Source: Thermoplasmatota archaeon
GTDB lineage: Archaea > Thermoplasmatota > SW-10-69-26 > JACQPN01 > JAJPHT01
Length of the DNA stretch: 64,000 bases
Reading direction: 5' to 3'
Assembly: GCA_035540375.1 (NCBI GenBank)
Contig: DATLGO010000048.1
Span: 27,772-91,771, forward strand
Part shown: piece after piece, positions 9,561-64,000 of the stretch
Layout: each line of letters begins with the position of its first letter
How positions within the stretch are numbered: the stretch's first letter is position 1
Program-made: the position numbers and the translations under genes
Notes under the pieces: generated by a model
The model's input: only the letters and a program-made list of their open reading frames with translations
Databases searched by the model: none
Told to the model about the DNA's origin: nothing

Positions 9561-9673
9561 GGAAGCCTCCCGATGGATCCAACGGGAGCCATCTATGTAA
9601 GGTTGATTGCGCAGACCGGCTTACCCGCGAGCGCCGTCCCCCCGCTCGACGCGCCATCGGAGAACGCTCGTCG

Positions 9674-19657: not shown

Positions 19658-19724
19658 GCGCGGAAACCCCGTTCGGGGGCCGTCAATCCTTTATGGGGCG
19701 GCGCGCTCAGGAGGAGCGGTCATC

Positions 19725-38744: not shown

Positions 38745-39250
38745 CGCGGATCCTCGGCGTGAGCGGCACGCTCCGGAAGGGCGGGAACACGACCATCCTC
38801 CTCGAGGAGGCCCTCAAGGCCGTCGCGGGCCGCGCGGAGACGGACCTCGTCGCGCTCGCGGACGCGGCGAACGGCGAGCAGCCGCCGAAGGCCGCGCTCG
38901 CGGATCTCGCGCGCCGGTTCGAGGCCGCCGACGCGGTCCTCATTGCGACCCCGAGCCACTTCGGCGCGCCGAGCGCCGCTCTCAAGGCGCTCCTCGACGA
39001 GACGTGGGAGGCCGCGAAGGCGCACCGTCTCGAGGGCAAGCTCGCGGCGGCGCTCGTCGTCGAGGCCGAAACGGGCGGGGAGCTCGCGGCGCAGGCCCTC
39101 GCGCACTGGGCGCACGTCCACCGCATGGATTTCCTCGGCTACGTCGTGGGCCGCGGGCTCAAGGAGCGCGAGGTGCTCTTCGACATCAAGGCCGTGCGCG
39201 GGGCGCGCGGGCTCGCAACTCGGGTCGCGGACCGCCTCGAGAGGCGCTAG
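38741..39250 (+). CDS. NADPH-dependent FMN reductase / flavodoxin-like fold oxidoreductase
   Basis: MTRILGVSGTLRKGGNTTILLEEALKAV...AVLIATPSHFGAPSAALKALLD. The start overlaps the nadE stop (ATGA). Confidence 0.7.
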   Translation: MTRILGVSGTLRKGGNTTILLEEALKAVAGRAETDLVALADAANGEQPPKAALADLARRFEAADAVLIATPSHFGAPSAALKALLDETWEAAKAHRLEGKLAAALVVEAETGGELAAQALAHWAHVHRMDFLGYVVGRGLKEREVLFDIKAVRGARGLATRVADRLERR

Positions 39251-40176
39251 CCTTTCGCGAGGTCCAGCTCGAACTCGCCCCCCGCGCACCGCACGGTGGA
39301 CTTTTCGCGCGCGAGCGCGTGGCCTGAAGGGCATCGGGCCTTGCGGACGAGCTTCTCGACCCACGCGTCCCTGAACGTGGCGTCGTCCGCGGCCGTGCCC
39401 GTGAACGTCTCGATCTTTGCGAGGATCTCCTTCGTCTCGGGCGTGGTCGCAAGCGCGGCAAGCGCGGCGTCGGTGGCAAGCGGCGTCGTCGGCGCCCGGA
39501 GCCGGTTCTGGAAAGCGAAGGCGGCCGCGAGCCCCACGAGGAAGCCCGAGAAGTGGCCCCACCACGCGATGCCGGTCTGGGCGAACATGTAGGCGACGTT
39601 GAAGCCGAGATAGATGAGGAGCACCCCGAAGCTCGGGAACCAGAACACCATGATCCCGAGAAGGATCGGGAGGTTCTTCCTCGGGAAGAGGACGGCGTAC
39701 GTCGTGAGCACGCCGAAGATCGCGCCCGAGGCGCCGACCGCAAGCGAGAACGGCGAAACGATCCGCGGGAGGATCTCGGCCATGCCGAGGTGGCCGAGCG
39801 CGGCCGCGAAGCCCGCCGCGAAGTAGACCACGAAGAACGTCCGCTCGCCCAGACGATCCTCGAGCGCGGCGCCCGCCGTGAGCAGGATGAAGAGGTTTCC
39901 GACGAGGTGGAACGGGTCCGCGTGCACGAACATGTAGGTGAGCGGAGCCCACCAGGTCGCGCCCGAGAGGAAGGCTTCGCTCCTCAATCCGAGCTGGAGC
40001 GTGACGAAGGGGTCCGCAAGCTGCAGCGCGAAGACGGCCATGCTGAGCACCCCGAGGCCATAGGCCTTGGGGAACGCCCGCAGGCGGACGATGACGACGG
40101 TGCCCACGAGGATCAGGGCGAGGCCGGCGATCGCGAGTCCCGTCGGGAGCAGGGCCACGCCCGCGTCATGGCGCAA
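39247..40176 (-). CDS. rhomboid-family intramembrane serine protease with C-terminal zinc-ribbon-like tail
   Basis: AVGASGAIFGVL (GxSG) and FHLVGNLF (His region), with six or more TM helices. C-terminal CPSGH...RCAGG. The probable TTG start is at 40176; the upstream part of the track ORF is Arg/Pro-rich junk. Confidence 0.65.
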   Translation of the reverse strand: MRHDAGVALLPTGLAIAGLALILVGTVVIVRLRAFPKAYGLGVLSMAVFALQLADPFVTLQLGLRSEAFLSGATWWAPLTYMFVHADPFHLVGNLFILLTAGAALEDRLGERTFFVVYFAAGFAAALGHLGMAEILPRIVSPFSLAVGASGAIFGVLTTYAVLFPRKNLPILLGIMVFWFPSFGVLLIYLGFNVAYMFAQTGIAWWGHFSGFLVGLAAAFAFQNRLRAPTTPLATDAALAALATTPETKEILAKIETFTGTAADDATFRDAWVEKLVRKARCPSGHALAREKSTVRCAGGEFELDLAKG

Positions 40177-40531
40177 GCGGCGGAAAAGCCCGTCGGAGCC
40201 CCGCCTCGCGCTCGGCCTCGCGCTTGAGGTCGACGAGGTGCCGCTCCACCCCGGTCGCGAGACGGGCGCGGCGAAGGCGCGCCGCGAGGTTCTCGGCCAG
40301 GTTCGCGGGCGCGAGCGCCACGCCGTGGACGACTTCGGTGCCTTGGGGCGTGGCCCGCAGCACGTACCAGGCCTCGCGTCGGGCGTCGAGCGGCCCGCGC
40401 GGGCCCCCGCCAGGCCCTTCGTACCGCGCGATGCCGGCGCGACGCGCGCCGCGGGCCTCGAGGACGCGGGCGACGGCGTCGGCGGGAGCATCGACGACGA
40501 CCGTGGAGGCCTCGCGGATGAAAACGGGCAT
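40166..40531 (-). CDS. hypothetical protein (121 aa)
   Basis: Internal Met (MPVFIREASTVVVDAP...) of the 40166..40909 ORF; the upstream part is Arg/Gly-rich and implausible. Confidence 0.35.
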   Translation of the reverse strand: MPVFIREASTVVVDAPADAVARVLEARGARRAGIARYEGPGGGPRGPLDARREAWYVLRATPQGTEVVHGVALAPANLAENLAARLRRARLATGVERHLVDLKREAEREAGLRRAFPPLAP

Positions 40532-40557
40532 GCGCGCGCGAGCCCGCGGCGCCCGCA

Positions 40558-49712: not shown

Positions 49713-50387
49713 CTACGCCGCGCGCCGCGTCTTCAAGGCGAGGTACCCGAGCGACGCGAGCGTCGTGAGGCCGACGAGGACGGCGGCCCCGTGGAGGCTG
49801 CGGGCCTCGACGCTCGCCCCGAGGACGGGGTGGAGGAGGCCGAAGATCGTCGGTCCCATGAGGACCGCGACGAGCACGATCGCGGCCGCGATCGCAAGAA
49901 GCCTCAGCTGACCCGCCCGGACCGCGGAAGCCGCGGCATCGAGGCGCGCGATCGTGCCGGGGGGCGCGGCCGCGGCGACGTGGAGGAACTTCGCGGCGAG
50001 GGTCGCGTTCTCGACGAAGACGACGAACCCGAGCCCGCCGGCGAGCGCGATCACCCATTCGAGGAGGGACGGAAACGCGGTCGCGACGGGGAGCGCGACG
50101 AGGATCGCGAGAAGGCCTCCCGCGGCCGTCTGGAGGTAGGCGAGGCGTTCGCCGCGACCCTCCGGGTCGTTCTCGACGTTGAAGCGCGAGGCCCGCACGA
50201 GCCCGTGCCGCGCGATCGCGGTGGCCGCGAGGCCCGCGGCGAGGGTGAGCGCCGGAATCTCGACGACGCCGAGGAACGGACGGTCGCCGAGGAGGGCGAG
50301 GCCGCCCGTCGCGAGGGCCGTCGTCGCGAGGCCCGCGGTCGCCATCGCGATGCTCGATCGGGCGCCGCGGCCGATGTCGCGCGTCAA
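49713..50387 (-). CDS. polytopic membrane protein, last gene of the MoxR operon
   Basis: 224 aa with at least five hydrophobic helices. The start overlaps the DUF58 stop by 4 nt (ATGA). Confidence 0.5.
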   Translation of the reverse strand: MTRDIGRGARSSIAMATAGLATTALATGGLALLGDRPFLGVVEIPALTLAAGLAATAIARHGLVRASRFNVENDPEGRGERLAYLQTAAGGLLAILVALPVATAFPSLLEWVIALAGGLGFVVFVENATLAAKFLHVAAAAPPGTIARLDAAASAVRAGQLRLLAIAAAIVLVAVLMGPTIFGLLHPVLGASVEARSLHGAAVLVGLTTLASLGYLALKTRRAA

Positions 50388-51640
50388 AGCAGCGCCTCCC
50401 GGGCGAAGGTGACGGTGATCGGCTCGGCGGTGTCCCAGTCGACGACCACGGCGCCGTAGGACTTCATCTGGGCGATGGCCGTCTCGCGCTCGAGCATCGC
50501 GGTCTCGTACTCGGCCGTGCCGGGCGCGATGCCCGCCTTCTCGAGGAAGGCGCCCGCGCGCGGGGTGACCACGAGGACGCGCATCTCGTAGGCGCGCAGG
50601 GCGCGAACGGCCTCGCTCGCGGTGCCGTCGTCGAGGAGGTTCGAGATGAGGATGATGGGGCTTCGCGGCTTCAGCATCGGGAGGATCTGTCCCACGGCCT
50701 CGAGGGCCTTCATCGCGCCCTTGCCGTCGGCGTCCGCGAGGGCCTCCGAGAGCGGGATGATGGGCTTCTCGGTGCCGGTGAGGCGGACCTCGCGGATCGC
50801 GTCCTCGTAGAAGATGAGCCGCATCTTGTCCCGGCGCTTGAGGAGGAAGCCCGCGAGCGAGACCGCGGCGCGCGATCCGTACACGATGGCGTTGTCGCGC
50901 ACGGTGCCGAGGCGCGCGATCTCGCGGTTGTCGAAGAGGATCGTGACGCGGGCCTGCGTCTCGCGCTCCGTCTGGTTGACGATGAAGTTCTTGCTGCGCG
51001 CGCTCGCCTTCCAGTTGATCGATCGGTAAGGGTCGCCCGTCATGTATTCGCGCAACGCGAAGAACGACGAGCCGTAGCCGGGTTGGCCGACGATGTAGTC
51101 GCCCGCGACGACGAGCGGGAACTTGCTCTTCGTGAGCGCGTCCCGCAGGTCGAATTGGCGCGGGTAGATCGTGAGGAACGTCACGCGGTCCACGTCGTTG
51201 TCCTCGTGGAAGAGCCCGAACGCGTCCTGCACGCGGAGCCGCACCGGCCCGAGCGAGAACTTCCCCTTGATGGGCGCGCGGAGCACGTAGTCCATCTCAA
51301 GCGGCTCCGCCGAGAGCGCGGTGAGGACGTAGTTCGAGCCGCCCGCGATCTCGAGACCGGGCGGGAGGGTGTCGCGGATCTCCGCGAACACCCTTCCGCG
51401 AAGGCCCTTGGCCTCGACGCGGAGCCGCGTCTTGACCTCGGCGCCCTCGTGGCCGACCTGGCTCGAGGTCTCGCGCGTGGCGCGGATGTCGACGGACTTC
51501 ACCGTGAAGGCTGCGGCGGCGAGGAGGGCGAGGCCCGCGAGGCCCGCCGATCCGACGACCGGCGCGTCGAACACGAGGCCGACCGAGACGAGCAGTCCCG
51601 ATCCGGCCGCGGTGAGCGCGCCCTTCAGGGTGAGCTTCAT
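50384..51640 (-). CDS. DUF58-family protein (MoxR partner), two N-terminal TM helices
   Basis: GDYIVGQPGYGSSFFALREYMTGDPYRSINWKASARS is the hallmark DUF58 motif. Confidence 0.85.
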   Translation of the reverse strand: MKLTLKGALTAAGSGLLVSVGLVFDAPVVGSAGLAGLALLAAAAFTVKSVDIRATRETSSQVGHEGAEVKTRLRVEAKGLRGRVFAEIRDTLPPGLEIAGGSNYVLTALSAEPLEMDYVLRAPIKGKFSLGPVRLRVQDAFGLFHEDNDVDRVTFLTIYPRQFDLRDALTKSKFPLVVAGDYIVGQPGYGSSFFALREYMTGDPYRSINWKASARSKNFIVNQTERETQARVTILFDNREIARLGTVRDNAIVYGSRAAVSLAGFLLKRRDKMRLIFYEDAIREVRLTGTEKPIIPLSEALADADGKGAMKALEAVGQILPMLKPRSPIILISNLLDDGTASEAVRALRAYEMRVLVVTPRAGAFLEKAGIAPGTAEYETAMLERETAIAQMKSYGAVVVDWDTAEPITVTFAREALL

Positions 51641-51647
51641 CGACGTC

Positions 51648-52667
51648 TCACACGGTGGGAACCGGCGCCTCGCGGACGATCTCGTTCACGACGTCGTGGT
51701 TCTTGACGCCCCGGATCTTCGATTCGGGCCGCAGGATGATGCGGTGGGCGAGGATGTGGGGCGCGACGAACTTGACATCGTCGGGGACGACGAAGTCGCG
51801 GCCCGACATGGCGGCCTTGCTGCGGCAGGCCTTGAGGAGCGCCTGCGAGCCGCGCGGCGAGGAGCCGACGTAGATGTCGGGGTGGCCGCGCGTGCGGACG
51901 ACGAGGTCGGCGATGTAGTCGATCATCTCGTCCGAGATGTAGATCGTCTCGATCGTCTGCTGCATCGCGATGACCTGCTGGGGGTTCGTGACGGCGGACA
52001 CGTCGACGTCGTCCTTCGCCCGACGGATGCGGCGGCGCAGGATCTCGGCCTCGTCGGCCTTCGCGGGGTACCCGACGCTGAGCTTCATGAGGAAGCGGTC
52101 CATCTGGGCTTCGGGCAGCGGGTAGGTACCTTCCTGCTCGACCGGGTTCTGCGTCGCCATGACGAGGTACGGCTTGTCGAGCTTGAGCGTCGCGCCTTCG
52201 ACCGTGACCTGGCGCTCCTGCATGGCCTCGAGGAGAGCCGATTGGGTCTTGGGCGGGGCGCGGTTGATCTCGTCCGCGAGCAGGATGTTGGTGAAGACCG
52301 GGCCCGGGCGGAAGTTGAACTCGCTCGACTGCTGGTTGTAGACGTACGTGCCCGTGATGTCGCCGGGAAGCACGTCGGGCGTGAACTGGATGCGGCGGAA
52401 GTCGCAGCCGGCCGCGCGCGCGAACGTGTTCGCCATGAGCGTCTTCGCCATGCCGGGAAAGTCCTCGAAGAGGATGTTGCCCGACGAGAGGATGTTGATC
52501 GTGACGAGCTCCAGCACCTCGCGCTTGCCGACGATGACCTTCGCCACCTCGTCGATGAGGCGCTTCGTCGTGTCGGCGAGCCGGACGACGTTCGGGTTCG
52601 GGGGGCGCTGCGGGCGCGCCTGGGCGAACGTCTTCGCTGCCTGGGGTTTCGTGGCCATGATTATCAC
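51648..52667 (-). CDS. MoxR-family AAA+ ATPase
   Basis: ILFEDFPGMAKTLMANTFARA (Walker A variant, AAA_3), LLADEINRAPPKTQSALLEAMQERQVT (Walker B and sensor), 339 aa. Confidence 0.93.
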   Translation of the reverse strand: MIIMATKPQAAKTFAQARPQRPPNPNVVRLADTTKRLIDEVAKVIVGKREVLELVTINILSSGNILFEDFPGMAKTLMANTFARAAGCDFRRIQFTPDVLPGDITGTYVYNQQSSEFNFRPGPVFTNILLADEINRAPPKTQSALLEAMQERQVTVEGATLKLDKPYLVMATQNPVEQEGTYPLPEAQMDRFLMKLSVGYPAKADEAEILRRRIRRAKDDVDVSAVTNPQQVIAMQQTIETIYISDEMIDYIADLVVRTRGHPDIYVGSSPRGSQALLKACRSKAAMSGRDFVVPDDVKFVAPHILAHRIILRPESKIRGVKNHDVVNEIVREAPVPTV

Positions 52668-53890
52668 CTGCTGCCTTTGCCGTAGTTCCGGATCCTTGTC
52701 AGGAGATCCTTGAGGGTATCGTCATCGCTTGCGCCGTTTTCGCCGCGCACGACGCGACGCAACCGGTCGTCGGTCGCGAGGACCGCGAGCGTTTCGGGGG
52801 CGGGCGACTCCTCGCGCACGCCGTGGACGGCCCGCACGCGCTCGCGCGCGAGGCGCGTAATGCGCTCGATCGGGCTCGCCATGGGGGAGGTCCGGACGCG
52901 GGCGAGGCCGCTCCGGTGGTGCGTGAGCCGCTCCTCGGGTTTGACGAGGGCGAGGAGCACCGCGATCGCGAGGCCGAGGGAACCGAGGAAGATCCACTGC
53001 CAGAACGGGTCCTTCGTCGGCACGACGAGCGACGCGAGGCCCGCCGCGGCGAGCCGGGCCTGGGGCGCGGGCGCGTGACGCGATTCGTCGAAGAGGATGG
53101 TTCCGGCGTTCGACCCGCGGGCGAGCGCGTCGGGGAGGGCGAGGGCAAACTTGCGGTTGTCGCTCCCTGCGGCGTCGAGCATCTCGTTCGTGAAGAGGGC
53201 GGGGTCCGCGATGAACATGACGGTGCCGCGGCCGTGCGCGACGACGACCATCTGGGGGAAGGGACCCTTCGTGTCCGTGTCGTCCTTGCGGCGGTTCCCG
53301 TCGTTGTCGAGGTACGAGTCCGGCGAGCTCGTCGCGACGATCCGGGCCGAGGGGTTCGCGCCGGAAAGAAGGCTCGGGCTCACGGTGAGGGCCGTGGGCT
53401 CGTTGAGAAGGAGGTCGAAGGTCAGGTCCTCGCCCTTGCTCGTCGTGAGGAGCGCGCGGGCGCGGGCGAGCGAGACGTTCTTCTGGAAGTTGGAGTCGAG
53501 GAGCGGCACCTTGTCGAAGGTGACGCCGAACTTGACGGCGAGCGTGTTCGCGAAGCCGAAGTCGTCCGCGACCACGAGGACGCCGCCGCGCGTCACGAAG
53601 TCGTCGAACGCCTCGATCTCGGAGGCCGAGTACGGCCGGCTCACGCCGACCGCGAACACGATGTGGGCCGCGGGATCGGAGACGCCGCGCAGCACGAGCG
53701 GCGTCGAGGCGATGGTGTCCGTGTTGTACCCGAGGCCCCCCGCGAGGCTCGCGCGGTACGCGCCGAGATCCGCGCGGCCCGAGCTGTAGGATCCGAGCTC
53801 CGGGGGCGGGGAATAGAGGATCGCGACGACGGCGCCCCCGACAATGAGGGCGGCAAGGAGGACGGCCGCGAGGCCGAGCGCGCGCTTCAC
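52664..53890 (-). CDS. DUF4350-like protein (N-terminal and C-terminal TM helices flanking a large extracytoplasmic domain)
   Basis: The GTG start (VKRALGLAAVLLAALIVGG) overlaps the stop of the giant upstream gene (GTGA). C-terminal TM FWQWIFLGSLGLAIAVLLALV. The stop overlaps the MoxR start (GTGA). The 5' 2.4 kb of the track ORF 52664..56311 overlaps the giant gene out of frame and is rejected. Confidence 0.6.
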   Translation of the reverse strand: MKRALGLAAVLLAALIVGGAVVAILYSPPPELGSYSSGRADLGAYRASLAGGLGYNTDTIASTPLVLRGVSDPAAHIVFAVGVSRPYSASEIEAFDDFVTRGGVLVVADDFGFANTLAVKFGVTFDKVPLLDSNFQKNVSLARARALLTTSKGEDLTFDLLLNEPTALTVSPSLLSGANPSARIVATSSPDSYLDNDGNRRKDDTDTKGPFPQMVVVAHGRGTVMFIADPALFTNEMLDAAGSDNRKFALALPDALARGSNAGTILFDESRHAPAPQARLAAAGLASLVVPTKDPFWQWIFLGSLGLAIAVLLALVKPEERLTHHRSGLARVRTSPMASPIERITRLARERVRAVHGVREESPAPETLAVLATDDRLRRVVRGENGASDDDTLKDLLTRIRNYGKGSR

Positions 53891-56800
53891 GCGCCCGCCT
53901 CCTTCGCGCCGCCCTTCGTGCGCCGGATGCGCGCGAGGTCGGCGTTGAGCGCGGCGAGCGCGCTCAGGGCGCGGTCGCGCTCGGCGGGCCCGACGCCGTG
54001 GGCGGAGTACCGCGCCTCCTCGAAGAGCGAGACGAGCGCGTCGAGCGGCGCCGCGCGCACCGGGAGAGCCGCCTTGACGGCGGCGCCGAACTCCTGCGCC
54101 GTGACGTCCGGCGTCGTCGTGTACCCGAATTTCACGAGGTAGTCGCGCAGGCGCCGGTAGGCCATGAGAATGGTGGCCGAGTACTCGTCGCCCGCGACGA
54201 GCGCGGCCTGCGTGTCGAGGAGGATGCGCTCGGCCTCGGTGACGCGGCTCTTCCTGTACCAGGCGACGAGGAGGCTCACGATGGCCGCGACCGCGAGAGC
54301 GCCGATGAGCGCGAGGACCCACGAGTTGCCGGCGCCGCCGAAGGCGCCCGTGGAGATCTGGATGCGGGTCGCCTCGTTCGTGGGCAGCAGGTCGTCGGTC
54401 CCGCCGAAGCGCACGTCGAGGTCCGAGGCGCCCGCTCCGGTGACCTTCCCCGGGAAGGAGGCGTGGCCGGTCGCGTTCGTCTTCAGCGTGAACGGGTAGT
54501 ACGAGCCGCTGAAGTGGACGCGGAGCACGGCGTTCGGGACGCCGAGCCCCTCGTCGTCGAGGAGCTGGACGGTGCCCGTGAAGCTGTCGCCCACCGCGAG
54601 CTTGCGGGGGACCACGACCTCGAGCCGGGTCATGCTGATGACCTCGACGAGCGCGATCGCCGAGGCGGGCGTGTGGCTCTGGTCGCCCGCGTAACGGACC
54701 TCGATCGGGACCCGGGCGCGCTCGAAGTCGGCCGGGATGAGGGCCGCGACGTGGAAGCTCCCGTTCGGGGCCGTGCTCGCGCGCGCGAGGAAGGAGCCGT
54801 TGAAGATGAGCTCCACGGAGGCGCCGGGGACGCCGAGGCCGTTCTCCTGCTTGAGGCGGCCGTCGAACTCGAAGACCTGGCCGCGCACGGCGCGCGGGGG
54901 CGGGTGGATCTCGAGCACGGTGCGCGAGAGCAGGCGCAGCGACCCGGTCGCCCCCGAGGGCGCGTAGAGCGTGGAGCCCTCGTAGCGCGCCTCGATCGGG
55001 TAGACCTTCGCGGCGACCCCGGAGGTGTCGAAGCCGGCCTCGGCCTCGCCGCGGAAGTCGGTCGGAGTGACCGTCACGGGCGATCCGAGGAAGGTGACGC
55101 CGACGATCTCGCCGCCGATGGGCCGGCCGGCGTCGTCGTGGAGCGTGAAGTTGTACACGACCTCGCCGATCGCGGCGGTGAGGTGGGGCATGCGAATCGA
55201 GGTCGCGCTCAGGACGCGCACCGTCGAGACGAGCTCCGGCGCCCCGCGCAGGAGGCCGTCCGCGCTCCCGTCGTAGCGGGCGCGCGCGAGGACGGGGCCG
55301 AGGCTCGCGTTCGCGGGGAGCGTGAGGGGCGCGCGGAATCCTCCGGTCGCGTTCGTCACGAAGACGCCGAGATGGCGCTCGCCGAGCGTCACGTTCACGC
55401 TTTCGCCGCGGACGGGCCGCTCGTAGGCGTCGACGACGACCCCGACGAGCGCCTGCGGAACGCCGCGCACGAGGGCCTTCGTCTCGAGGCTCACGCGCGT
55501 CGCGGACGTCGCCGGAACGCGGATCGAGGTCGAGGCGGGCCCGTAGAAGTCGGATCCCGCGAATCCGAGCGCGAACGTCACGCTCCCGACCTTGGGATAG
55601 ACGTTCCTCGGGATGGTGAGCGAGAAGGTTCCCGTCGCGTTGTCCACGCGCGCCTGGGTCGCGTAACCCTCCGTCGAGATGCGGATGACGAGCGCGTCGC
55701 GCGAGGTGGGGTCGCGCGCGGGGCCGCCGCCCACGTCCCGGAGGGTCCCCTGGATGACCGCGTCCTTCGCGATGTCGAGCGCCGTGACGCGGATGAGGTC
55801 GGCCCCGAGGGGCTGGAGGATCTGCGCCTCGAGGACGGGCCGGGCCCGGATGGTGACGAAGCTGAGCTTCTGCGAGGAGGCCTGGTAGAGGTCGGATCCC
55901 TCGAAGACGAGGGAAACGGGCTGGTTGCCAGGACTCGAGTCCTCGGGGATGAGGATCTTGAAGGACGCGACACCCTGCGCGTTTGTAACCGCCGTGTGGA
56001 GCGCTCCGAGGAAATGGAGACCGACGGTCTCGTTGCCGACGACCGCCCCCCGGAAGTTCCTGAGGGTCGCCTCGGCGACGAGATCGCCTCCCGCAACCGC
56101 GATGAGACGATCGTTCAGCACGCGGCCGGAGATCTTCGTGGGGAACGCGATCGCGACGCGGGCCTTCCCCGTCGAGGCGCCGTAGAGCTCCGATGGCGTG
56201 GTCTCGAGCGGGAGGTCGAAGTAGCCCGGCTCCTGGGCGGCGCCGGTCGGGAAGCTGATGTTGAACCGCCCCTCCGCGTCCGTGGTCGCGCTCTTGCGGA
56301 CGCCGTTCCACGTCATGAGCACCGGCCTCCGCGGCGCGGGGTCACCCGACCCGTCGAGGAGGCGCGCGGTGCCCCCGATCTCGCCGTTCGGCGTCGTGCG
56401 GAGCGTGGGTCCGGCGTCGAACGTGGTCGGCGTGCGCAGGCGGAGCGTCTGTGTTGCCACCACGGGCGTCTCGAACGTGCCGCGGATGCCCCGGGCCCGG
56501 TAGACGGTGGAGCCCGCGCCGTCGACGACGTCGGCGGCGGTCCACTCCGCGTGGGCGCCGATGCCGTAGCTCCAGAGAAGGACGCGGTAGCTCGTGATCG
56601 CTGGATCGAGCGCGACGGAGGCCGTGTCGAGGGTCCAGCTCACCGTGGATCCCGGAGCGTGGACCTTGCCGAAGAGCACCACCGGGCCGCAGCTCGAGGG
56701 AATGGTGACGGATTGCGCGCGCACGAGCGAAAGCGTGAGCGAGAAGCGGCCGGCGGCGTCCGTGAACGCCACGCCCGCGACGCGGGACGGGTCGCTGCGG

Positions 56801-59800
56801 GCCCTCAGGTTGTCCTTCGAGGCGTCGTTCCAGGCGAGGTTCGCGAGGATGGGGACGCAGGCGCGGTTGACCCAGTTGCGCGTCGAGGCCGCCGGGGCGA
56901 GCGTCCCGTCGACCGCAAGCGAGCCCCCCTTGAGCAGGATGTCGTCCTGACCGGAGTGGTGCGTCACGACGAGGTCCTGGATCACGACGTCCGCAAGCGC
57001 TTCCCAGATCGGGCACGTGTCGCCGGGAAGTCGGGTCGAGGCCACGCTGAGGCGGCCTTCGCGCATCACCCAGGCGTTCCGGAAGGCGGGGTCCGCGGGG
57101 TCCGCCTCGCCCGTGTTCATCTGGTCGTAGAACGGGTGCGGATCCTCGCCGACGAAGTCGTTCAGCCCGTCCTTGTCGTAGTCGAAGTTGTTGCCGAGGA
57201 TCTTGCCCGTGATCGGGTCGATGAAGCCGTCCTTGAAGGGCGGTCCCGCCTTGCACGAGCGCGTCGCGATGTTCGTGTCCGTGCGGTTGCCCGCGGCGCC
57301 GAACCACCAGGTGCCGGTCCACGACGGCGGGCGGCCGATGTCGTACCGCTGGCCTTCGGACAGGTCGCCGAAGCGCGAGACCGTGCGGGTGTCCTGGAGC
57401 GGGTCGTACCCGTAGAGCTGCTCCCACCCGTCGGGGATCCCGTCGTCGTCCGAATCCTCGTCCGTGGGGGAGGTTCCGACGGCGCACGTTCCCCCGTCGG
57501 GGCATCGCTCGCCGTAGAAGATGTATCCGCCCGGAATGCGCGTGTGCACGATGCCCGCGGCGATGAGCGCTTCGACGTGCTCCGCAAGGTCCGGCTTCGA
57601 GAGCGTCGCTTCGCACGTCGCGGGGAGGGCGCCGCCCGCAAGCTGCGCCTGCCAGTTCGGGCCGTCGAGGAGGCCGTCGCCGTCGGTGTCGAAGGCGACG
57701 ACGCTCGTCGGGGGATTGAGCGCGAGCTCGTCGGCGGCGCTGAGGCCGTCGCAGTCCGCGTCGGAGGCGCCGAGGTCGTCGAGCGGGTTCAGCGGATTGG
57801 ATCCCGCGAGCTTCCCTTCCTCGGTGACCTCCTTGCCGTCGCCGAGGCCGCCGAAGTCGCTGTCGGGATTGAGGGGATCGGTCGGGCCCGGCATGCCGGG
57901 CTCGAAGGAGACCTTCCACTCGTTGACGTTCGAAAGCCCGTCGCCGTCGCAGTCCGATTTCCCGCCGAGGGGGTTGCGCGGCTCGAAGAGGCTCACGCAG
58001 GAGACGTAGGCGGGGCTCGCCGAGGCGAGCCGGCGCGTGCGCGCCTCCCACCAGTCCGGCATCCCGTCGCCGTCGGTGTCCGGCACGAGCGGGTCCGTGC
58101 GGTTCTCGTACATCTCGCGCCAGGTCCAGCGGAACGGGCCCTGGATGATGTAGACCGTGAATTCCTCGGCGCGGCCCTGGGCCTTCACGCGGTGGTACCC
58201 GTTCGTCGGGGCGAGGAGGGTCTCCGAGGGCGCAAGCGTCGCGGGCGTGCCCTCGGGGACGCCGAGGGTGCGCACGTACGTGGTCTCGAACCCGGTGGCG
58301 TTCACGTCGCCGGGCTTGAGCGGGTCCATGCAGCCGCACGGCGACGCGACGCCGGGGGCGTGCGAGCCGACGCGGGAGAAGTAGTATTCCCACCCGTCGG
58401 GAACGCCGTCGCCGTCCGAGTCCGCGCGGTGGGGATCGGTCTTGAGCGCGTACTCGTCGAGGTTCGTGAACGCGAACTGGAACGGGAACAGGGTGCCGAC
58501 GCGGTGGTCCACGCCGTCGCCGTCGAGGTCGCGCGTCGTGTCGGAGAGCCCGTCCTTGAGGCACGACCCGAGGCTGTCGACCCGCGTCGGATCGAGGTCC
58601 CACGCGAAGCACGCGTGGACGTACCAGGCGTGGCGGATCTCCCAGCCGTCGTCGAGCGAGTCCCCGTCCGTGTCGAAGAGGGCGGGATCGGAGGCGGGGA
58701 AGGGGTACGCGTCGAGCGCCCCCGGGGCCGCGAGGCGGCGCTCGGGCTTGAGCTCGGCCCCGTCGTTCACGCCGTCGCCGTCGGCATCCGCGTTCACGAC
58801 GTTCGGGGCGTCCTGCCAGCGGCCGCAGCCTTCGCCGAGGCGTCCCTGGGGCAGGAGCGCCTCGCGGGCCTGCTGGAGCGACCACGTCTCGCCCTTGCAG
58901 CGGCGGTGCTGGTCGATGATGCGGTTCAGCTCCTCGGGCGTCGCCTGCTGGGAGCGGGTCGTCCAGTACTCGACCTCGGCGCCGTCGAGGATCCCGTCGC
59001 GATCCGTGTCGGACTCGACGGGGCTGAGCGGCGGGGACACGGCGAAGGCGACCTCGTCGAGATCGTCGATGCCGTCGAGGTCCGTGTCGGGCGTGAGGGG
59101 ATCGAGCGCGCACGGGACGCCCGCCTTGGCGGCCGTGTCGTAGCAGAAGTCGACGCGGCGGCCCGCGATGACCGAGAAACCCTGACGCTTCTCGAAGTCG
59201 GTGAAACCCGAGTTGGCGCTGTCCGCGCGGGCGGGATTGCTCCACACGTGCGTCGTGCGACCGTCGACCGTGACCGACCAACCGAGGACGACCTCCTCGA
59301 AGTCGTTGAGGCCGTCGCCGTCCGTGTCGCGCCGCCGCGGATCGGCGCCCGAGAGCGCCTCCTCGAGGTTCGTGAGGCCGTCGCCGTCGGGGTCCGTGAG
59401 CGGCCCCACGACGAAGGCGGGAAGCGAGGCGCGCGAGAGCCACGCGGGGAGCGAGATGTGGGTGAGGAGCGCCGCGCGCACGCCGCCGCCGTCCGCCGCC
59501 GAGAGCGGGTCGAGCCCGTGCGCGACCTCCCACGCGTCCGACATGCCGTCGCCGTCGGAGTCCGCCCGCGTCGGGGAAAGCCCGCGCGCGAAGAGGGGCG
59601 CGAGCTCGTCGCCCGAGAGGTTCGCGTAATTGAAGCGGGCCGCGGTCCAGCGGAACTTCTCGAGCACCGTCATGCCGGTCCCGTCGAGGCTCCGGTAGGC
59701 GAGGCCCGGGTCGAGGGCGTCGAGCTTCCAGTGGAGGAGCCAGCCGTCCGCGATGCCCGCGCCGCTCGTCGAGTATCGCGTCGCGTTCGTGCGCGTCTCC

Positions 59801-60465
59801 GTCATCTCCTTGAGATCCTCGAGACCGTCGCCGTCGGAGTCGAGGCGCGAAGGATCGAGGCCGAGCGCGAAGTTCTCGAGGTTCGTGAGACCCTTGCCCG
59901 AGCAGTCCCGCGTCGCATCGGGAACGAGCGGGTCCGGGCACGCGGTCCCGTTGTCGGGGCCGCGCTTCGCGTAACGGGCCTCCCAGGCGTCCGGGAGCCC
60001 GTCGCGGTCCGTGTCCGCGTGGTTCGGGTCCGTTCCGTGCCGCTCCTCGTCGCGGTTCGAGAGGCCGTCGCGATCGCAGTCGCCGTCCGCGTCGGGAACC
60101 ACGGGGTCGGGACAGTACGTTCCGGAGACGAAGTCGTAGCTTCGCTTCAGCGCCTCCCACGCGTCGGGAAGGCCGTCGCCGTCCGTGTCCGCGGAGTCGC
60201 GCGCCGTGCCGTAGGAGAACGTCTCGTCGAGGTCGGAGAGCCCGTCGCCGTCCGTGTCGATGAAGGCGAGATTGCCGTCCGGCGTCGCGGTCGCGAACTC
60301 GATCTGTCCCGTGCCCGCGGTCTGCGTGAGGCTCGGAAGGACGGCGGCGCCGACGAGGAGGTTCGCGAGGAGGACGAGCGCGAGGACCGCGGGAGCCACC
60401 TTCGCCTTCTGCGCCCAGGCCCACCGCGCCATGCGGGTCGCGGCTTCGCTTCCCGGAAGCGTCAC
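53887..60465 (-). CDS. giant (2192 aa) surface protein with a TSP3-like repeat region, a beta-sandwich domain array, a TM helix and a DUF4129-like cytoplasmic tail
   Basis: N-terminal signal/anchor (VAPAVLALVLLANLLVGAAVL). About 19 D-x-D-x-D-G-x-x-D-x-x-E repeats (for example DTDGDGLSDLDE, DSDGDGMSDAWE, DTDGDGMPDWWE). Repeated roughly 100-aa beta-sandwich modules. TM helix NSWVLALIGALAVAAIVSLLVAWY. C-terminal tail with ...TPDVTAQEF...LFEEARYSAHG... resembling DUF4129. Confidence 0.8.
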   Translation of the reverse strand: MTLPGSEAATRMARWAWAQKAKVAPAVLALVLLANLLVGAAVLPSLTQTAGTGQIEFATATPDGNLAFIDTDGDGLSDLDETFSYGTARDSADTDGDGLPDAWEALKRSYDFVSGTYCPDPVVPDADGDCDRDGLSNRDEERHGTDPNHADTDRDGLPDAWEARYAKRGPDNGTACPDPLVPDATRDCSGKGLTNLENFALGLDPSRLDSDGDGLEDLKEMTETRTNATRYSTSGAGIADGWLLHWKLDALDPGLAYRSLDGTGMTVLEKFRWTAARFNYANLSGDELAPLFARGLSPTRADSDGDGMSDAWEVAHGLDPLSAADGGGVRAALLTHISLPAWLSRASLPAFVVGPLTDPDGDGLTNLEEALSGADPRRRDTDGDGLNDFEEVVLGWSVTVDGRTTHVWSNPARADSANSGFTDFEKRQGFSVIAGRRVDFCYDTAAKAGVPCALDPLTPDTDLDGIDDLDEVAFAVSPPLSPVESDTDRDGILDGAEVEYWTTRSQQATPEELNRIIDQHRRCKGETWSLQQAREALLPQGRLGEGCGRWQDAPNVVNADADGDGVNDGAELKPERRLAAPGALDAYPFPASDPALFDTDGDSLDDGWEIRHAWYVHACFAWDLDPTRVDSLGSCLKDGLSDTTRDLDGDGVDHRVGTLFPFQFAFTNLDEYALKTDPHRADSDGDGVPDGWEYYFSRVGSHAPGVASPCGCMDPLKPGDVNATGFETTYVRTLGVPEGTPATLAPSETLLAPTNGYHRVKAQGRAEEFTVYIIQGPFRWTWREMYENRTDPLVPDTDGDGMPDWWEARTRRLASASPAYVSCVSLFEPRNPLGGKSDCDGDGLSNVNEWKVSFEPGMPGPTDPLNPDSDFGGLGDGKEVTEEGKLAGSNPLNPLDDLGASDADCDGLSAADELALNPPTSVVAFDTDGDGLLDGPNWQAQLAGGALPATCEATLSKPDLAEHVEALIAAGIVHTRIPGGYIFYGERCPDGGTCAVGTSPTDEDSDDDGIPDGWEQLYGYDPLQDTRTVSRFGDLSEGQRYDIGRPPSWTGTWWFGAAGNRTDTNIATRSCKAGPPFKDGFIDPITGKILGNNFDYDKDGLNDFVGEDPHPFYDQMNTGEADPADPAFRNAWVMREGRLSVASTRLPGDTCPIWEALADVVIQDLVVTHHSGQDDILLKGGSLAVDGTLAPAASTRNWVNRACVPILANLAWNDASKDNLRARSDPSRVAGVAFTDAAGRFSLTLSLVRAQSVTIPSSCGPVVLFGKVHAPGSTVSWTLDTASVALDPAITSYRVLLWSYGIGAHAEWTAADVVDGAGSTVYRARGIRGTFETPVVATQTLRLRTPTTFDAGPTLRTTPNGEIGGTARLLDGSGDPAPRRPVLMTWNGVRKSATTDAEGRFNISFPTGAAQEPGYFDLPLETTPSELYGASTGKARVAIAFPTKISGRVLNDRLIAVAGGDLVAEATLRNFRGAVVGNETVGLHFLGALHTAVTNAQGVASFKILIPEDSSPGNQPVSLVFEGSDLYQASSQKLSFVTIRARPVLEAQILQPLGADLIRVTALDIAKDAVIQGTLRDVGGGPARDPTSRDALVIRISTEGYATQARVDNATGTFSLTIPRNVYPKVGSVTFALGFAGSDFYGPASTSIRVPATSATRVSLETKALVRGVPQALVGVVVDAYERPVRGESVNVTLGERHLGVFVTNATGGFRAPLTLPANASLGPVLARARYDGSADGLLRGAPELVSTVRVLSATSIRMPHLTAAIGEVVYNFTLHDDAGRPIGGEIVGVTFLGSPVTVTPTDFRGEAEAGFDTSGVAAKVYPIEARYEGSTLYAPSGATGSLRLLSRTVLEIHPPPRAVRGQVFEFDGRLKQENGLGVPGASVELIFNGSFLARASTAPNGSFHVAALIPADFERARVPIEVRYAGDQSHTPASAIALVEVISMTRLEVVVPRKLAVGDSFTGTVQLLDDEGLGVPNAVLRVHFSGSYYPFTLKTNATGHASFPGKVTGAGASDLDVRFGGTDDLLPTNEATRIQISTGAFGGAGNSWVLALIGALAVAAIVSLLVAWYRKSRVTEAERILLDTQAALVAGDEYSATILMAYRRLRDYLVKFGYTTTPDVTAQEFGAAVKAALPVRAAPLDALVSLFEEARYSAHGVGPAERDRALSALAALNADLARIRRTKGGAKEAGA

Positions 60466-63400
60466 GGGGCGACCCTCCGCCTAAGGAGCAGGGCCGCGCC
60501 GAGCGCCGCGACGACGATCGCGAAGGCCGGAACGGGCGTGAAGGCGCCGCTTGATCGGGCCGAAAGGTCGTATTTGAGGGCGTTGTTCGCGCGGTTCTCC
60601 TCGTGGAAGCGGTTCGAGGGATCGATCGCGATCTCGAACGTCGAGGCCCGGATGACGTTCCACGGGAGCTGGATCTTGCGGGCCTCGTTTGGGGCGAGGC
60701 TCTCGAGCGTCGCGTTCTTCACGACCTGCCCGTCCGCGACGAGCGCGACCTCGACGCGGCTCGCGGGCACGGTGCCGTTGTTGAGGACGGTGATCTCGAA
60801 GAGGACGGTCTCGCCGACCGCGAAGCGGTTGGCCTTCGCGTCGACCTTCACGACGCTGAGGTCGAGGCGCTCGATCACGAGGTCGATCGGCGTCACGCGC
60901 TCGCGCTCCTGGTTGATGACGCCGCGGACCTCGAGCCGCGCGCTGTCGCTTGTGGCGTTGCGCGGCGCGGTGACCTCGAAGGCCACGCGCGTGGATTGGC
61001 CGGGCTCGAGCCTGACGATGCGGTCATCGGGCCGCTCGAACCGCATCGTCCAACCCGGGGGCGGGACGGTCTCGAGGACGATCTCCTCGGGACCGTTGCC
61101 GGTGTTCGTGACCGCGAGCGCGACGCGCGTCTTTCCGCCGGGACGGACGAACCCGTCGGACTCCACGATGGCCTCGTAGTCGAAGAATCGCTTCACGCGG
61201 GCCGCGACGACCTTCTCGAACAGGTGGCGCGAGCCTTCCGCGTCCGAGAGGAGGAAGCCGACGCCGATCGCGAATTCGCCCGGATCCTCGTTGGGCTTCG
61301 CGGCGACGACGACCGAGACGGCGCGCGCCTCGCCCGGCAGCAGGTCGAAGGTGCCCGGCGGATTGACCTCTGCGAAGGACCAGCCGGGCGGGAGCGCGGA
61401 GGGCACGAGAGAGACCCGCATCGCGCCGTTCGCGCGGCTTGCGATCTCGAAATCGAAGCTCACCTTGGCGCCCGGGTCGAGACTGCGGGGGAGCGGGGTC
61501 GGAACGACGAGTGTGAAGTTGTTGACGACGATGGCGGTCACGCGCGTCGCGTTCTCCTTGAGGCCGCCGTCGGCTTCCTCGGTGAGCGCGGTCGCCTTCA
61601 CCTGGAAGGGAAGCACCTGACCGACGCGCGCGCTCGGTCCCGGCAGCACCGAGAGGTTCACGACCCGGCTGTCGCCCTGGCCGCGGAGCGTCACGCGCGA
61701 AGGCTCGATCGCGTACGTCCAGTCGGGGGCCGCGGGGGAGACGACGCCGAGGACGACCTCCGTGTCGCTTCCCAGGTTCGTGACCTTGATCGGGAGGTGC
61801 GTCGTCGTTCCGGGCGTGACGCGGAAGGTCGAGTTCTCGGCGTCGACCCGAAGGTCCGTGCGGATGTTGATGCTCACCGTGGCCGTGACCTGGTCCTGGG
61901 TCGAGGCGTCCGCGACCGAGGCGCCCTGGACGACGAACTCCCATTGGAGGGGGAGGTCGTTGCGCGGCGCGCGCACGCGGAGCTTGACCTCCGTTTCGCC
62001 CTTCTCGGGGAGCGCGACGCGACCCTTGAGACCCGAGGAATCCGCGATGCGGCGGCCCGCCGCGTCGACGATCTCGGCCGTGAACGGGAAGCCGCCGGGA
62101 CCGCCGGGGCTCACGGAGAGCGTGACGTTGTCCGCGCCCGTGCCCGTGTTCTTCACGAGGACCGTGAACTCGTGCGTGCCCGCGGACTGGAGGCTCGCGA
62201 ACGAGGTCTTGGCCTGCGCGACGCGGCCGACGAACGACATCTGGAAGTCGTAACGCGTCTGCACGCTCACCGTGACGCGCGCGGTATCCTGGATGCGCGG
62301 GTTGGCTCCGCTCGTGAGCGTGAGGTTGAAGGTGATCTGCTCGCCGGTCTTCACCGAGGGGTCGATGCGGATCGCCACGGTGACGTCGCGCGTTCCGCCC
62401 GTCGGGATCGAGCGCTCGATCGCGGTCGAGACCGTGACGCGCCATTTCTGGGTCGAGCCCTGGAAGTCCTGGTCGATCTCGAAGTCGTCCGTGATGCTCG
62501 TGTTGCCGAGGCCGCGGCCGAGGTTCACCGCGGTGAGCGTGAACTTGGCCGTGTCGCCCGGCTTGAACGTCCCCGAAAGCGTTCGCTCCTTCCACGCGAC
62601 GAGGTTTCCGTAGAAGTTGACGATGCCGACCTCGATCTTCACGGGCGCGAGCGTGCCCTGGTAGAACGTCCCGTAGAGCTGGCTCCCCGGCGTGTACACG
62701 TTCACGAGCACGGGCTTCGACGCTTCCACGCGGAAGAAGGCGTCCTTCGCGCCCGACCGGAAGATGGGCTGGTTGTTCTGGCGCCACACGTAGTCGTTCT
62801 GGTTGAGCGTCCGCGTGAGGCGCGTCGTGAACTGGGTCGTGCCGTTCGCGAGGAGGGTTTCCTCCTTGACGGTCACGACGGTGTTGTTGTGGACGGGAAA
62901 GATGTTCATCCATCCCGGGAGGCTGTTCGACCCGGTGGAGGGGATGCGGACCTCGAAGACGCGGCCGCCGTCGAGACCGCCCGCGGCCATGTATCCTCGT
63001 CGGCCCGAGGCGACCGAGATGGGTCCTCCTTCGACCGCGTAGAAGGTCCAGGGCTCGGCGCGGTCGTTGTGCGTGTTCTGGCTCTGGACGTTCGAGCGGA
63101 CGGCGTGCGGCTTGATCGTGAGGGTTCCGTCGCAGTACGGGATGCGGCCGAGCTGCGGGGGCGTCGTGAGCTGGTCGCAGGTCGGCGAGACCATGCGCGT
63201 TCCGATGAACTCGGTGGGCGCGTAGGCTGTCGTCACGAAGGACCGCGCGAAGGCGCCGTAGACCTGGGTTCCCGCCGGTGCGCCGTGCTTCGACGGCATC
63301 TGGTAGAGATAGTTGTCGTTGGCCCCGGTCGTGAACACCATGATGCGGCCTTCGGCTTCGATCCGCATCGGCGATCCGTCCGACCCGACGAGGGTCGCGC

Positions 63401-64000
63401 TCGGGATGTTCACGGGCGTTTCCTTCGGAACGCGGTTCGACCACCTCGGGCCGCTCTGCGATACTCGAGCGTCGAAGATGCGCACCTCCGTGGGGCCGTC
63501 GAGCGCGACGATGTACATGGGGGTCGGCGACGTGTCGCTCTGGGGCGCGGACGCGGGAAGGAAGTGGAAGCGGCGACCGACGATGCCCCCGTCGACGGCG
63601 GGGACGACCGTCGCGGTGGGATAGAACGTCCCGACCGTCTCGGGCGGGTTGGGCCGGTAGAGGTAGTCCTGCCTCAGCGAGACCGTGACGGGCTTCGACG
63701 CGACGACCTTGAAGTAGAAATCCTGGTCGCCGTTCACGACGGTGACGGTGAGGGGCGTCGCCTGGAAATGGTCGCCCTCGATCACGATCCCGCCGTCGCG
63801 CATCTTCGTCTTCTCGTTGCCGGGGATGCAGGGCGGATTGTTCCGCGCCTCGCCGCAAAGCGGGATCGGATCGGGCTCGAAGTTCTCGAGCCGGTAGCGA
63901 TAGAGCCTGACGGTCGTGTTCGGGAAGTGCGGCATGACGTCGAGCACGGCCGGCGCGCCGGCTTCCGCGCCGTTCGCGGGAGCCCACCCGTAGAAGGTGG
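60462..64000 (-). CDS. giant surface protein with a CARDB/DUF11-type domain array and PGF-CTERM-like C-terminal anchor, 5'-truncated by the window edge
   Basis: Repeated CARDB-like units (FTVLVKNTGTGADNVTLSV; VKVDAKANRFAVGETVLFEITVLNNGTVPASRVEVALVADGQV). C-terminus ...GAFTPVPAFAIVVAALGAALLLRRRVAP. The stop overlaps the next start (ATGA). The reading frame stays open upstream to the window edge (no in-frame stop 63948-64000). Confidence 0.75.
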   Translation of the reverse strand, partial: TFYGWAPANGAEAGAPAVLDVMPHFPNTTVRLYRYRLENFEPDPIPLCGEARNNPPCIPGNEKTKMRDGGIVIEGDHFQATPLTVTVVNGDQDFYFKVVASKPVTVSLRQDYLYRPNPPETVGTFYPTATVVPAVDGGIVGRRFHFLPASAPQSDTSPTPMYIVALDGPTEVRIFDARVSQSGPRWSNRVPKETPVNIPSATLVGSDGSPMRIEAEGRIMVFTTGANDNYLYQMPSKHGAPAGTQVYGAFARSFVTTAYAPTEFIGTRMVSPTCDQLTTPPQLGRIPYCDGTLTIKPHAVRSNVQSQNTHNDRAEPWTFYAVEGGPISVASGRRGYMAAGGLDGGRVFEVRIPSTGSNSLPGWMNIFPVHNNTVVTVKEETLLANGTTQFTTRLTRTLNQNDYVWRQNNQPIFRSGAKDAFFRVEASKPVLVNVYTPGSQLYGTFYQGTLAPVKIEVGIVNFYGNLVAWKERTLSGTFKPGDTAKFTLTAVNLGRGLGNTSITDDFEIDQDFQGSTQKWRVTVSTAIERSIPTGGTRDVTVAIRIDPSVKTGEQITFNLTLTSGANPRIQDTARVTVSVQTRYDFQMSFVGRVAQAKTSFASLQSAGTHEFTVLVKNTGTGADNVTLSVSPGGPGGFPFTAEIVDAAGRRIADSSGLKGRVALPEKGETEVKLRVRAPRNDLPLQWEFVVQGASVADASTQDQVTATVSINIRTDLRVDAENSTFRVTPGTTTHLPIKVTNLGSDTEVVLGVVSPAAPDWTYAIEPSRVTLRGQGDSRVVNLSVLPGPSARVGQVLPFQVKATALTEEADGGLKENATRVTAIVVNNFTLVVPTPLPRSLDPGAKVSFDFEIASRANGAMRVSLVPSALPPGWSFAEVNPPGTFDLLPGEARAVSVVVAAKPNEDPGEFAIGVGFLLSDAEGSRHLFEKVVAARVKRFFDYEAIVESDGFVRPGGKTRVALAVTNTGNGPEEIVLETVPPPGWTMRFERPDDRIVRLEPGQSTRVAFEVTAPRNATSDSARLEVRGVINQERERVTPIDLVIERLDLSVVKVDAKANRFAVGETVLFEITVLNNGTVPASRVEVALVADGQVVKNATLESLAPNEARKIQLPWNVIRASTFEIAIDPSNRFHEENRANNALKYDLSARSSGAFTPVPAFAIVVAALGAALLLRRRVAP

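Follow-up and report, generated by a model that had tools for sequence, protein, structure and literature searches.

Does the C-terminus of a large archaeal surface protein carry a sorting signal of the kind that archaeosortases process, or does it end in an ordinary membrane anchor? The question is raised by a 64,000-nucleotide stretch from a Thermoplasmatota archaeon (assembly GCA_035540375.1, contig DATLGO010000048.1, positions 27,772 to 91,771), hereafter the window, whose minus strand encodes P0001, a NEW3/CARDB immunoglobulin (Ig)-array surface protein that ends in a Pro-containing motif, a short hydrophobic helix and an Arg cluster. This tail is more than a chance feature: both leading proteins of the operon to which P0001 belongs carry such a tail in all eight organisms with the same operon, giving 16 tails, two per operon. 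The reading that we favor, with a rough probability of 0.45, is that the tail may be a divergent signal for C-terminal sorting or anchoring, PGF/PEP-like but so far covered by no model, that the two cargo proteins of a conserved Thermoplasmatota surface operon have in common and that, by analogy with known systems, an archaeosortase-type enzyme encoded elsewhere would process.

The C-terminal tail of P0001

P0001 is 1417 amino acids long in full. Its open reading frame (ORF) extends past the window edge, with residues 240-1417 encoded inside the window (60462..64000, minus strand; translation, Pfam and homolog match), and its NCBI name is 'NEW3 domain-containing protein [Candidatus Thermoplasmatota archaeon]'. 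An N-terminal Sec-type signal peptide is predicted from the sequence, and Pfam finds NEW3 (NPCBM_assoc) in four stretches, with CARDB as the terminal domain. This last CARDB domain (60576..60863, minus strand; PF07705, 56.5 bits, residues 1046-1141 of the window translation), for which PDB 2L0D is the sole structure match, lies directly before the tail.

The minus-strand ORF stops at 60462 (window part 60462-63998); its translation ends ...NALKYDLSARSSGAFTPVPAFAIVVAALGAALLLRRRVAP, with ...AFAIVVAALGAALLLR as the extreme C-terminal peptide. The tail itself, SARSSGAFTPVPAFAIVVAALGAALLLRRRVAP including the stop codon, occupies 60462..60563 on the minus strand, as read from the translation, and is kept in orthologs. 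It opens with the linker SARSSGAF (60540-60563), followed by T-P-V-P (60528..60539), which the alignments place in register with the motif [V/T/L]-P-x-P of the clade and whose first Pro is P1394, and by the overlapping P-A-F (60522..60530). Next come a 15-residue hydrophobic and uncharged run, AFAIVVAALGAALLL, with Pro and Arg at its borders (60483..60527), an RRR cluster encoded by AGG CGG AGG (60474..60482), the tripeptide VAP (60465-60473) and a TGA stop (60462-60464), so that a helix followed by a basic cluster stands at the extreme C-terminus. The tail has no long Ser/Thr-rich linker and no Cys. Among the window ORFs, a hydrophobic run at the C-terminus is found in that of P0001 only.

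A preliminary description of this DNA had reported a Pro-x-Phe tripeptide, a hydrophobic helix and an Arg cluster at this C-terminus, and the translation bears it out; the range then given, 60462-60560, was correct but for one codon, that of the first Ser in the peptide quoted. The tail had been assigned to a CARDB-array giant, an attribution that does not hold: its carrier is the 1417-residue protein, and the giants are the neighbors of P0001, of 3824 residues upstream and 2192 residues downstream.

Homologs and conservation

An exhaustive phmmer search with P0001 returned 545 homologs, of which 21 reach E <= 1e-30; among them are full-length orthologs at 28-36% identity. A word-index search gave three matches for full P0001 and one for the upstream giant; scans of genome and metagenome contigs with the N-terminal part of the giant, run as an upstream walk, gave no match. 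A C-terminal hydrophobic segment is present in 128 homologs, and 95 of these 128 terminate no more than 13 residues past it. Signal peptides are found in all carriers examined, that is, P0001, 11 homologs and the upstream giant P0122.

The eight organisms with the same operon (window/L001, L006, L007, L009/L017, L013, L014, L015 and L018) are, where they bear a name, called Thermoplasmatota, Thermoplasmatales or Euryarchaeota archaeon, apart from one labelled Halobacteriales, and each has the giant CARDB protein, a P0001 ortholog, the DUF4129 giant and DUF4350, usually with MoxR and DUF58. Tail counts per genome cover the operon region of each genome. All 16 operon tails begin with [V/T/L]-P, and in 15 of them a Gly comes next, following either that Pro directly or a second Pro located two residues further along; P0001, with Ala there, is the exception. 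Representative tails are AVPGLPALALVGVLVAAAVLGARRRR, AVPVPGLGVLLLVLIGVALAMPRRRRR and AVPGYEPLMTLALIGAAAVLMSRRRQM, and further NVPGPGFLLLVLTAAVGAVVTRRWRRW, RTPGFEPALLLLAALAAGAVLRRAPGRRGP and GLPGFEPGLLLAAVGAAAAASLMRRRRGGGPDG; the closest match to the T-P-V-P of P0001 is AVPVPGL in the L014 giant. Taken together, the clade tails follow the pattern [V/T/L]-P-(x-P)-G-hydrophobic, a 14-16-residue hydrophobic run, and R3-4 at the extreme C-terminus.

Conservation was read from 15 orthologs aligned over their full length with MAFFT. Within the motif, P1394 is the best-conserved residue, at 90% or more; R1413 and R1414 are invariant, and the mean column identity is only 36%; the linker between the CARDB domain and the tail is variable. 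The P-A-F of P0001 aligns with P-G-F in P0011, P-G-W in P0007 and P-G-A in P0005 and P0015, and a literal PGFEP is found in ortholog P0008 and in the L015 ortholog. The second Pro and the Gly of the clade motif are majority residues and not invariant. Because P-A-F falls in the PGF/PGW/PGA columns, the tail of P0001 is, as judged from the alignment, a slightly degenerate copy in which Gly has been replaced by Ala. The suggestion in the preliminary description that P-A-F is a variant of PGF thus stands as far as the columns go; the clade motif, however, we describe as [V/T/L]-P-(x-P)-G-hydrophobic rather than P-x-F because the upstream Pro of T-P-V-P is the most conserved. The comparison proposed at that time with other surface-protein C-termini also gave a positive answer, in that the adjacent 3824-residue protein of the same genome has the same signal, which settles one half of the refuting condition named there.

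Certain Thermoproteota proteins (L030 9896-14467, L033 3785-8242, L034 9659-14137 and L036 6631-9633) share with P0001 just its N-terminal 'WWNxxWHxRVP' domain. They end differently, in WEW, a helix and RR(R)PPFxS, a layout that may be another lineage-specific C-terminal signal. A gene for a CopA-type copper P-type ATPase lies near these proteins in L030 and L034.

Comparison with curated CTERM models

The hidden Markov model (HMM) TIGR04126, which describes PGF-CTERM, has a curated cut-off of 24.5 bits. The P0001 tail scores 11.7 bits as a 38-residue piece and 14.0 bits as a 29-residue piece, with only profile positions 14-27 aligned (the helix and RRR) and the motif outside the alignment; full-length P0001 gives no match to this model, and a Pfam search of the protein gives no PGF-CTERM match at E <= 10. 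An in-silico change of PAF to PGF does not rescue the score (13.3 bits). Strict membership of PGF-CTERM, for which the preliminary description had proposed this HMM as a check, therefore fails, and with P-A-F the tail lacks the Pro-Gly-Phe signature that would abut the helix. This failure is only weakly informative, since literal PGF tails of homologs themselves score no more than 12.9-18.3 bits and since lineage-specific PGF-CTERM HMMs have had to be built elsewhere because TIGR04126 misses divergent PGF tails (PMC9723798).

Several relatives pass the curated cut-off of another model: on Loki-CTERM, P0048 with its PGF[E/D] tail reaches 32.1 vs 19.9, the tail of P0052 passes both Loki-CTERM (20.8) and Heimdall-CTERM (24.1 vs 24), and the tail of ortholog P0005 passes PEP-CTERM (TIGR02595) at 19.5 vs 16 over the whole profile, P0011 reaching 15.9. 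The P0001 tail matches none of the Loki-CTERM, Heimdall-CTERM and PEP-CTERM models. On TIGR03382, the older MYXO-CTERM model, the isolated tail scores 16.0-16.1 vs 15.85, falling to 9.7 bits in the full protein; this nominal pass reflects the composition of the helix and RRR. MYXO-CTERM (TIGR03382/TIGR03901) is ruled out by the absence of the defining Cys, by the archaeal host and by the loss of the score in the full-length protein. Across 30 clade tails, TIGR04126 is reached at E <= 1 by only 6, the best at about 19 bits, and no curated family describes the set. A profile built from these 30 tails, searched against 5.8 billion proteins, found six weak generic fragments only, annotated IPTL-, PGF-, PEP- or MYXO-CTERM.

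Comparison with ordinary membrane anchors

The transmembrane (TM) anchors of the DUF4129 and DUF4350 proteins provide a control from within the same operons and organisms. Tail runs measure 14, 14, 15, 15, 15, 16 and 16 residues vs 17-29 residues in these anchors, which are followed by 92-128 cytoplasmic residues. Among the 128 homologs with a C-terminal segment, the median run is 16 residues in the short-tail class vs 19 in the long-tail class (Mann-Whitney p = 6e-6), and a Pro stands at the border of the run in 71 of 95 short-tail vs 15 of 33 long-tail homologs (Fisher p = 0.0045). The frequency of Pro in the homologs peaks 16-20 residues ahead of the basic cluster.

Homologs also differ in what they carry at this position. 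A plain TM segment with a long cytoplasmic tail is found in P0003, P0004 and similar proteins (33 of the 128), and others bear Loki-/Heimdall-CTERM-type or PEP-CTERM-passing tails. Such a 'choice of anchor' is typical of sorting signals (Haft 2023, bioRxiv 10.1101/2023.06.07.544157). The shorter runs, the Pro border with its peak and the choice of anchor favor a sorting-type signal over a plain anchor.

Operon and host

P0001 is the second gene of a tight minus-strand operon with the order CARDB giant, P0001, DUF4129 giant, DUF4350, MoxR, DUF58 and a 224-residue membrane protein, and the same gene order recurs in L007, L009, L013 and L015. The first gene encodes the 3824-residue CARDB giant P0122, which lies outside the window (in L001), directly upstream of P0001, and ends in a tail of the same kind, AVPGLPALALVGVLVAAAVLGARRRR. 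Downstream of P0001, all on the minus strand, are a 2192-residue protein with TSP3 repeats, Big/CarboxypepD-like domains, a 23-residue TM segment and a cytoplasmic DUF4129 domain (53887..60465; Pfam and sequence), a DUF4350 (arCOG01314) membrane protein with about 92 residues after its TM segment (52664..53890; Pfam), a MoxR-type AAA+ ATPase (AAA_3; 51648..52667; Pfam) and a DUF58 (vWA-like) protein (50384..51640; Pfam). The last gene (49713..50387), known from its sequence, encodes a 224-residue polytopic protein with 4-6 predicted helices that belongs to no Pfam or NCBIfam family. Such a protein, of 224-228 residues, closes the operon after DUF58 both here and in L009 (22935-23621), L007 (from 23925) yields the opening 70 residues of a counterpart, and both full-length copies share the motif L[E/D]WVIALAG.LG. 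A comparison of the three sequences showed no conserved catalytic-type residues, and the single-sequence AlphaFold 2 model of the 224-residue protein is unreliable (pLDDT 61.7, pTM 0.41).

The coding of the tail is entangled with that of the 2192-residue protein, whose GTG start overlaps the P0001 TGA stop as GTGA. The Arg cluster uses AGG twice, a codon that makes up just 4.3% of Arg codons in ten window genes, and the resulting AGGCGGAGGG sits 6-15 nucleotides upstream of the GTG; because of this position, the Arg-cluster codons seem to serve the downstream gene as well, in the manner of a Shine-Dalgarno-like purine run. The junction between the giant and P0001 differs, with a 21-nucleotide spacer containing GGAAAGAGGA.

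The operon corresponds to a known gene neighborhood. Makarova, Galperin & Koonin (2015, PMC5898192) predicted that the arCOG01314 (DUF4350)/MoxR/vWA neighborhood encodes a complex for secretion or membrane remodelling, among whose components are Ig-domain 'S-layer-like' proteins, and Pfam finds DUF4350, the MoxR AAA+ ATPase, DUF58 and Ig-domain surface proteins together in the P0001 operon. The preliminary description had supposed that the operon handles covalent attachment to the cell surface. Nothing in it points to such chemistry, and what it matches is the neighborhood predicted to serve secretion or remodelling.

The window has a G+C content of 70% and encodes aEF-1alpha, Nep1/EMG1, PAC2, a three-domain Lig1-type ATP-dependent DNA ligase and an AMP-phosphorylase-type enzyme; it contains no tRNA genes and no Rfam matches. 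Its proteins are not acidic (isoelectric point 8.3 for EF1A and 7.4 for CTP synthase). The archaeal marker genes together with the non-acidic proteins thus indicate a non-halophilic archaeon, and a haloarchaeal origin is ruled out by the latter. L015 (JAIVGT010000001.1), labelled 'Halobacteriales archaeon MAG107', has the same operon at 72.7% GC, the tails VPGLEP and LPGFEP, and mildly acidic proteins; the label looks doubtful and was not used as evidence for ArtA.

Three further features were seen in or near the window. A choice-of-anchor P family protein (8682-9620, minus strand; NF040603, 53.9 bits vs a cut-off of 27) has an N-terminal hydrophobic segment and no C-terminal anchor. At 19341-21164 on the plus strand, a single frame that runs from stop to stop contains, at residues 132-218, a SAMP1/MoaD-like stretch (60.3 bits vs a cut-off of 60) followed by a UbaA/MoeB-type E1 and a rhodanese domain, either a fused modifier-E1 or two adjacent genes. 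About 5-9 kb outside the window, on its low-coordinate side, L003 (15242-19566) carries an archaeal type IV pilus module consisting of a Pilin_N protein, a PilB-like ATPase and a PilC-like protein.

Weighing the possible readings

Were the tail a divergent sorting signal, the N-terminal signal peptide predicted from the sequence would drive export of P0001, and the short helix and Arg cluster would keep the C-terminus membrane-bound, its Arg residues on the inner side, as the positive-inside rule suggests. By analogy with the known systems, an archaeosortase/exosortase-type endopeptidase, embedded in the membrane and encoded elsewhere, would then cut at or near the Pro-Gly motif, and the helix would be exchanged for a lipid anchor, as ArtA does with PGF-CTERM proteins. 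With Ala for Gly, the copy on P0001 may undergo processing at a lower efficiency, or none. No spacer separates the motif from the helix, just as in the PGF-, PEP- and GlyGly-CTERM signals that are cut by membrane-embedded enzymes (Haft 2023, bioRxiv 10.1101/2023.06.07.544157). Of the eight attributes of sorting signals set out in that study, six are seen here: a position near the C-terminus, a TM-like hydrophobic middle, a terminal group of 2-5 basic residues and a signal peptide (attributes 1, 4, 5 and 6), multiple occurrences per genome (attribute 2; two here, and two per operon in seven other organisms), and homologs with no signal or with another (attribute 8; the plain TM segments of P0003/P0004, the Loki-/Heimdall-type tails of P0048/P0052 and the WEW...RRRPPFxS tail of the Thermoproteota proteins).

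Several observations weigh against this reading. About three invariant motif residues are expected of a sorting signal (Haft 2023), and the motif here is loose, with one near-invariant residue, a single Pro at 90% or more. Otherwise-unrelated carriers (attribute 7) are also expected, and a CARDB domain stands directly before the tail in every carrier found, so that the tail could have been inherited with this domain and not selected as a portable signal. Permuting PGF to PFG blocks ArtA processing in H. volcanii (PMC6098224), and P0001 lacks the Gly of the motif. Within full-length P0001, the tail stays under the cut-off of every curated sorting-signal model, and low-scoring matches of the 30 clade tails are spread over 38 different CTERM models, a promiscuity that indicates composition rather than a specific family. 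A scan of the multi-TM ORFs of each locus, made without an ArtA query sequence, found no archaeosortase or exosortase in the 64-kb window or 10 kb past each end (about 84 kb of genome: window, L001 and L003), and none among the multi-TM ORFs of 37 loci (622 kb, redundancy included). A literature search on Thermoplasmatota, Thermoplasmata and MGII yielded no report linking archaeosortases to Thermoplasmatota. The 224-residue operon protein was set aside as a candidate sorting enzyme for want of a family match and of a reliable model.

Chief among the rivals is a permanent stop-transfer anchor of type I, in which the helix would stay in the membrane, the Arg residues would orient it and the Pro or Pro-Gly would act as cap and hinge, with neither cleavage nor lipid. 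We take this to be a serious possibility. Related proteins are plainly anchored by TM segments with cytoplasmic tails (the 33 of 128 homologs that include P0003 and P0004), and the degenerate motif with its lost Gly, the sorting enzyme not found among the multi-TM ORFs of the 37 loci, the similarly low tail scores on many unrelated CTERM models and the six weak generic fragments returned by the 30-tail profile are all what such an anchor would lead one to expect; even the VAP extension and the AGG codons can be accounted for by the overlapping start of the next gene. It fits less well, however, with runs of 14-16 residues, which are short for a stable span and shorter than the DUF4129/DUF4350 anchors of the same organisms, with a distance from Pro to Arg cluster that is fixed across proteins at only 25-36% identity, and with the tails of homologs that, at the same position, score above the cut-off of Loki-, Heimdall- or PEP-CTERM. 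At the other extreme, the tail might be a canonical PGF-CTERM (TIGR04126/PF18204) that archaeosortase A cleaves just as it does in Halobacteria and methanogens. The layout is identical, PAF stands in the PGF columns, two orthologs (P0008 and that of L015) have a literal PGFEP, and TIGR04126 is known to miss divergent PGF tails (PMC9723798), a difficulty shared by the literal PGF tails of the homologs. Nonetheless, the sub-threshold scores with the motif unaligned, the unrescued PGF mutant, the lack of a Pfam match, the 6 of 30 clade tails that touch the model, the missing long Ser/Thr-rich linker and the failure to find ArtA in about 84 kb of genome and the related loci make this very improbable.

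It is also worth considering that a different intramembrane protease sheds or matures the ectodomain. A bona fide rhomboid-family protease of 436 residues is encoded in the window (39250-40557, minus strand; PF01694, 94.5 bits), 20 kb from the P0001 tail, and it is weakly rhombosortase-like (29.3 bits). The helix of P0001 contains AALGAA, and small residues and Gly in a helix suit rhomboid substrates. Some tripartite signals do use enzymes other than archaeosortases, namely GlyGly-CTERM with rhombosortase and MYXO-CTERM with myxosortase (Haft 2023, bioRxiv 10.1101/2023.06.07.544157). A CPBP/Rce1-type enzyme or the 224-residue operon protein could be imagined in the same role, the latter because a polytopic protein follows DUF58 here and in L009, with the start of a counterpart in L007. 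Yet the rhomboid lies far under the rhombosortase cut-off of 84 bits and has no link to the operon, myxosortase-type logic cannot apply because the tail has no Cys, and the 224-residue protein has neither conserved catalytic-type residues in the three sequences, nor a family, nor a model beyond pLDDT 61.7. We regard such a protease as distinctly improbable. Finally, the favored reading of a divergent signal can be taken further, to a Thermoplasmatota-specific unmodelled signal that would mark exactly two giant Ig-array cargo proteins, with the arCOG01314/MoxR/vWA operon as a dedicated export-and-anchoring system and either a divergent archaeosortase elsewhere or the 224-residue membrane protein as the enzyme; in this extended form we consider it unlikely.

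Significance

Processing of the tail, if it takes place, would bring C-terminal sorting and lipid anchoring of the archaeosortase type to Thermoplasmatota; for this large uncultured archaeal phylum, no such system is described in the literature searched. It would also provide a first handle on the cargo of the arCOG01314/MoxR/vWA operon, which is predicted from comparative genomics to be a secretion or membrane-remodelling machine, with no experimental test reported in the literature searched. A lineage-specific tail HMM would better annotate surface proteins now named just 'NEW3/CARDB domain-containing protein'. Should the tail be no more than a stop-transfer anchor, the finding is an ordinary one.

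Comparison with known systems

It is informative to set the tail beside the signals and gene neighborhoods that it most resembles. Like the signal of the archaeosortase A (PGF-CTERM) system on the H. volcanii S-layer glycoprotein, it has a Pro-led motif abutting a short helix, an Arg cluster and a place at the very C-terminal end of an archaeal surface protein that is secreted, and orthologs have PGF at the columns of the P0001 PAF. In contrast to that system, the P0001 tail falls under the HMM cut-off, has Ala for the signature Gly, is best conserved at the upstream Pro and lacks a long Thr/Ser linker; no ArtA was found in the loci scanned, nor any link between Thermoplasmatota and ArtA in the literature searched. 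The Loki-CTERM (NF033507) and Heimdall-CTERM (NF045529) signals are approached by distant NEW3/CARDB homologs that end in [I/L/M]PGF[E/D] after the last CARDB domain, P0048 and P0052 passing the models, but the P0001 tail matches neither, and the P0048 and P0053 loci show a different gene context, in which the MoxR operon is lacking; that of P0053 looks Asgard-like. A resemblance to the PEP-CTERM/exosortase system (TIGR02595) can be seen in V-P-x-P, helix and RRRR, which recall V-P-E-P, and in the score of P0005 (19.5 vs 16), although that system is bacterial, the acidic Glu of PEP is absent and P0001 gives no match.

With the arCOG01314/MoxR/vWA neighborhood (PMC5898192), the operon has in common DUF4350, the MoxR AAA+ ATPase, DUF58 and Ig-domain surface proteins of the predicted S-layer-like kind; in the parts of that report consulted, we found no mention of a C-terminal tail shared by the two leading proteins. 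What sets the present operon apart is that two very large CARDB/NEW3 proteins, together with a DUF4129 giant, stand at its head.

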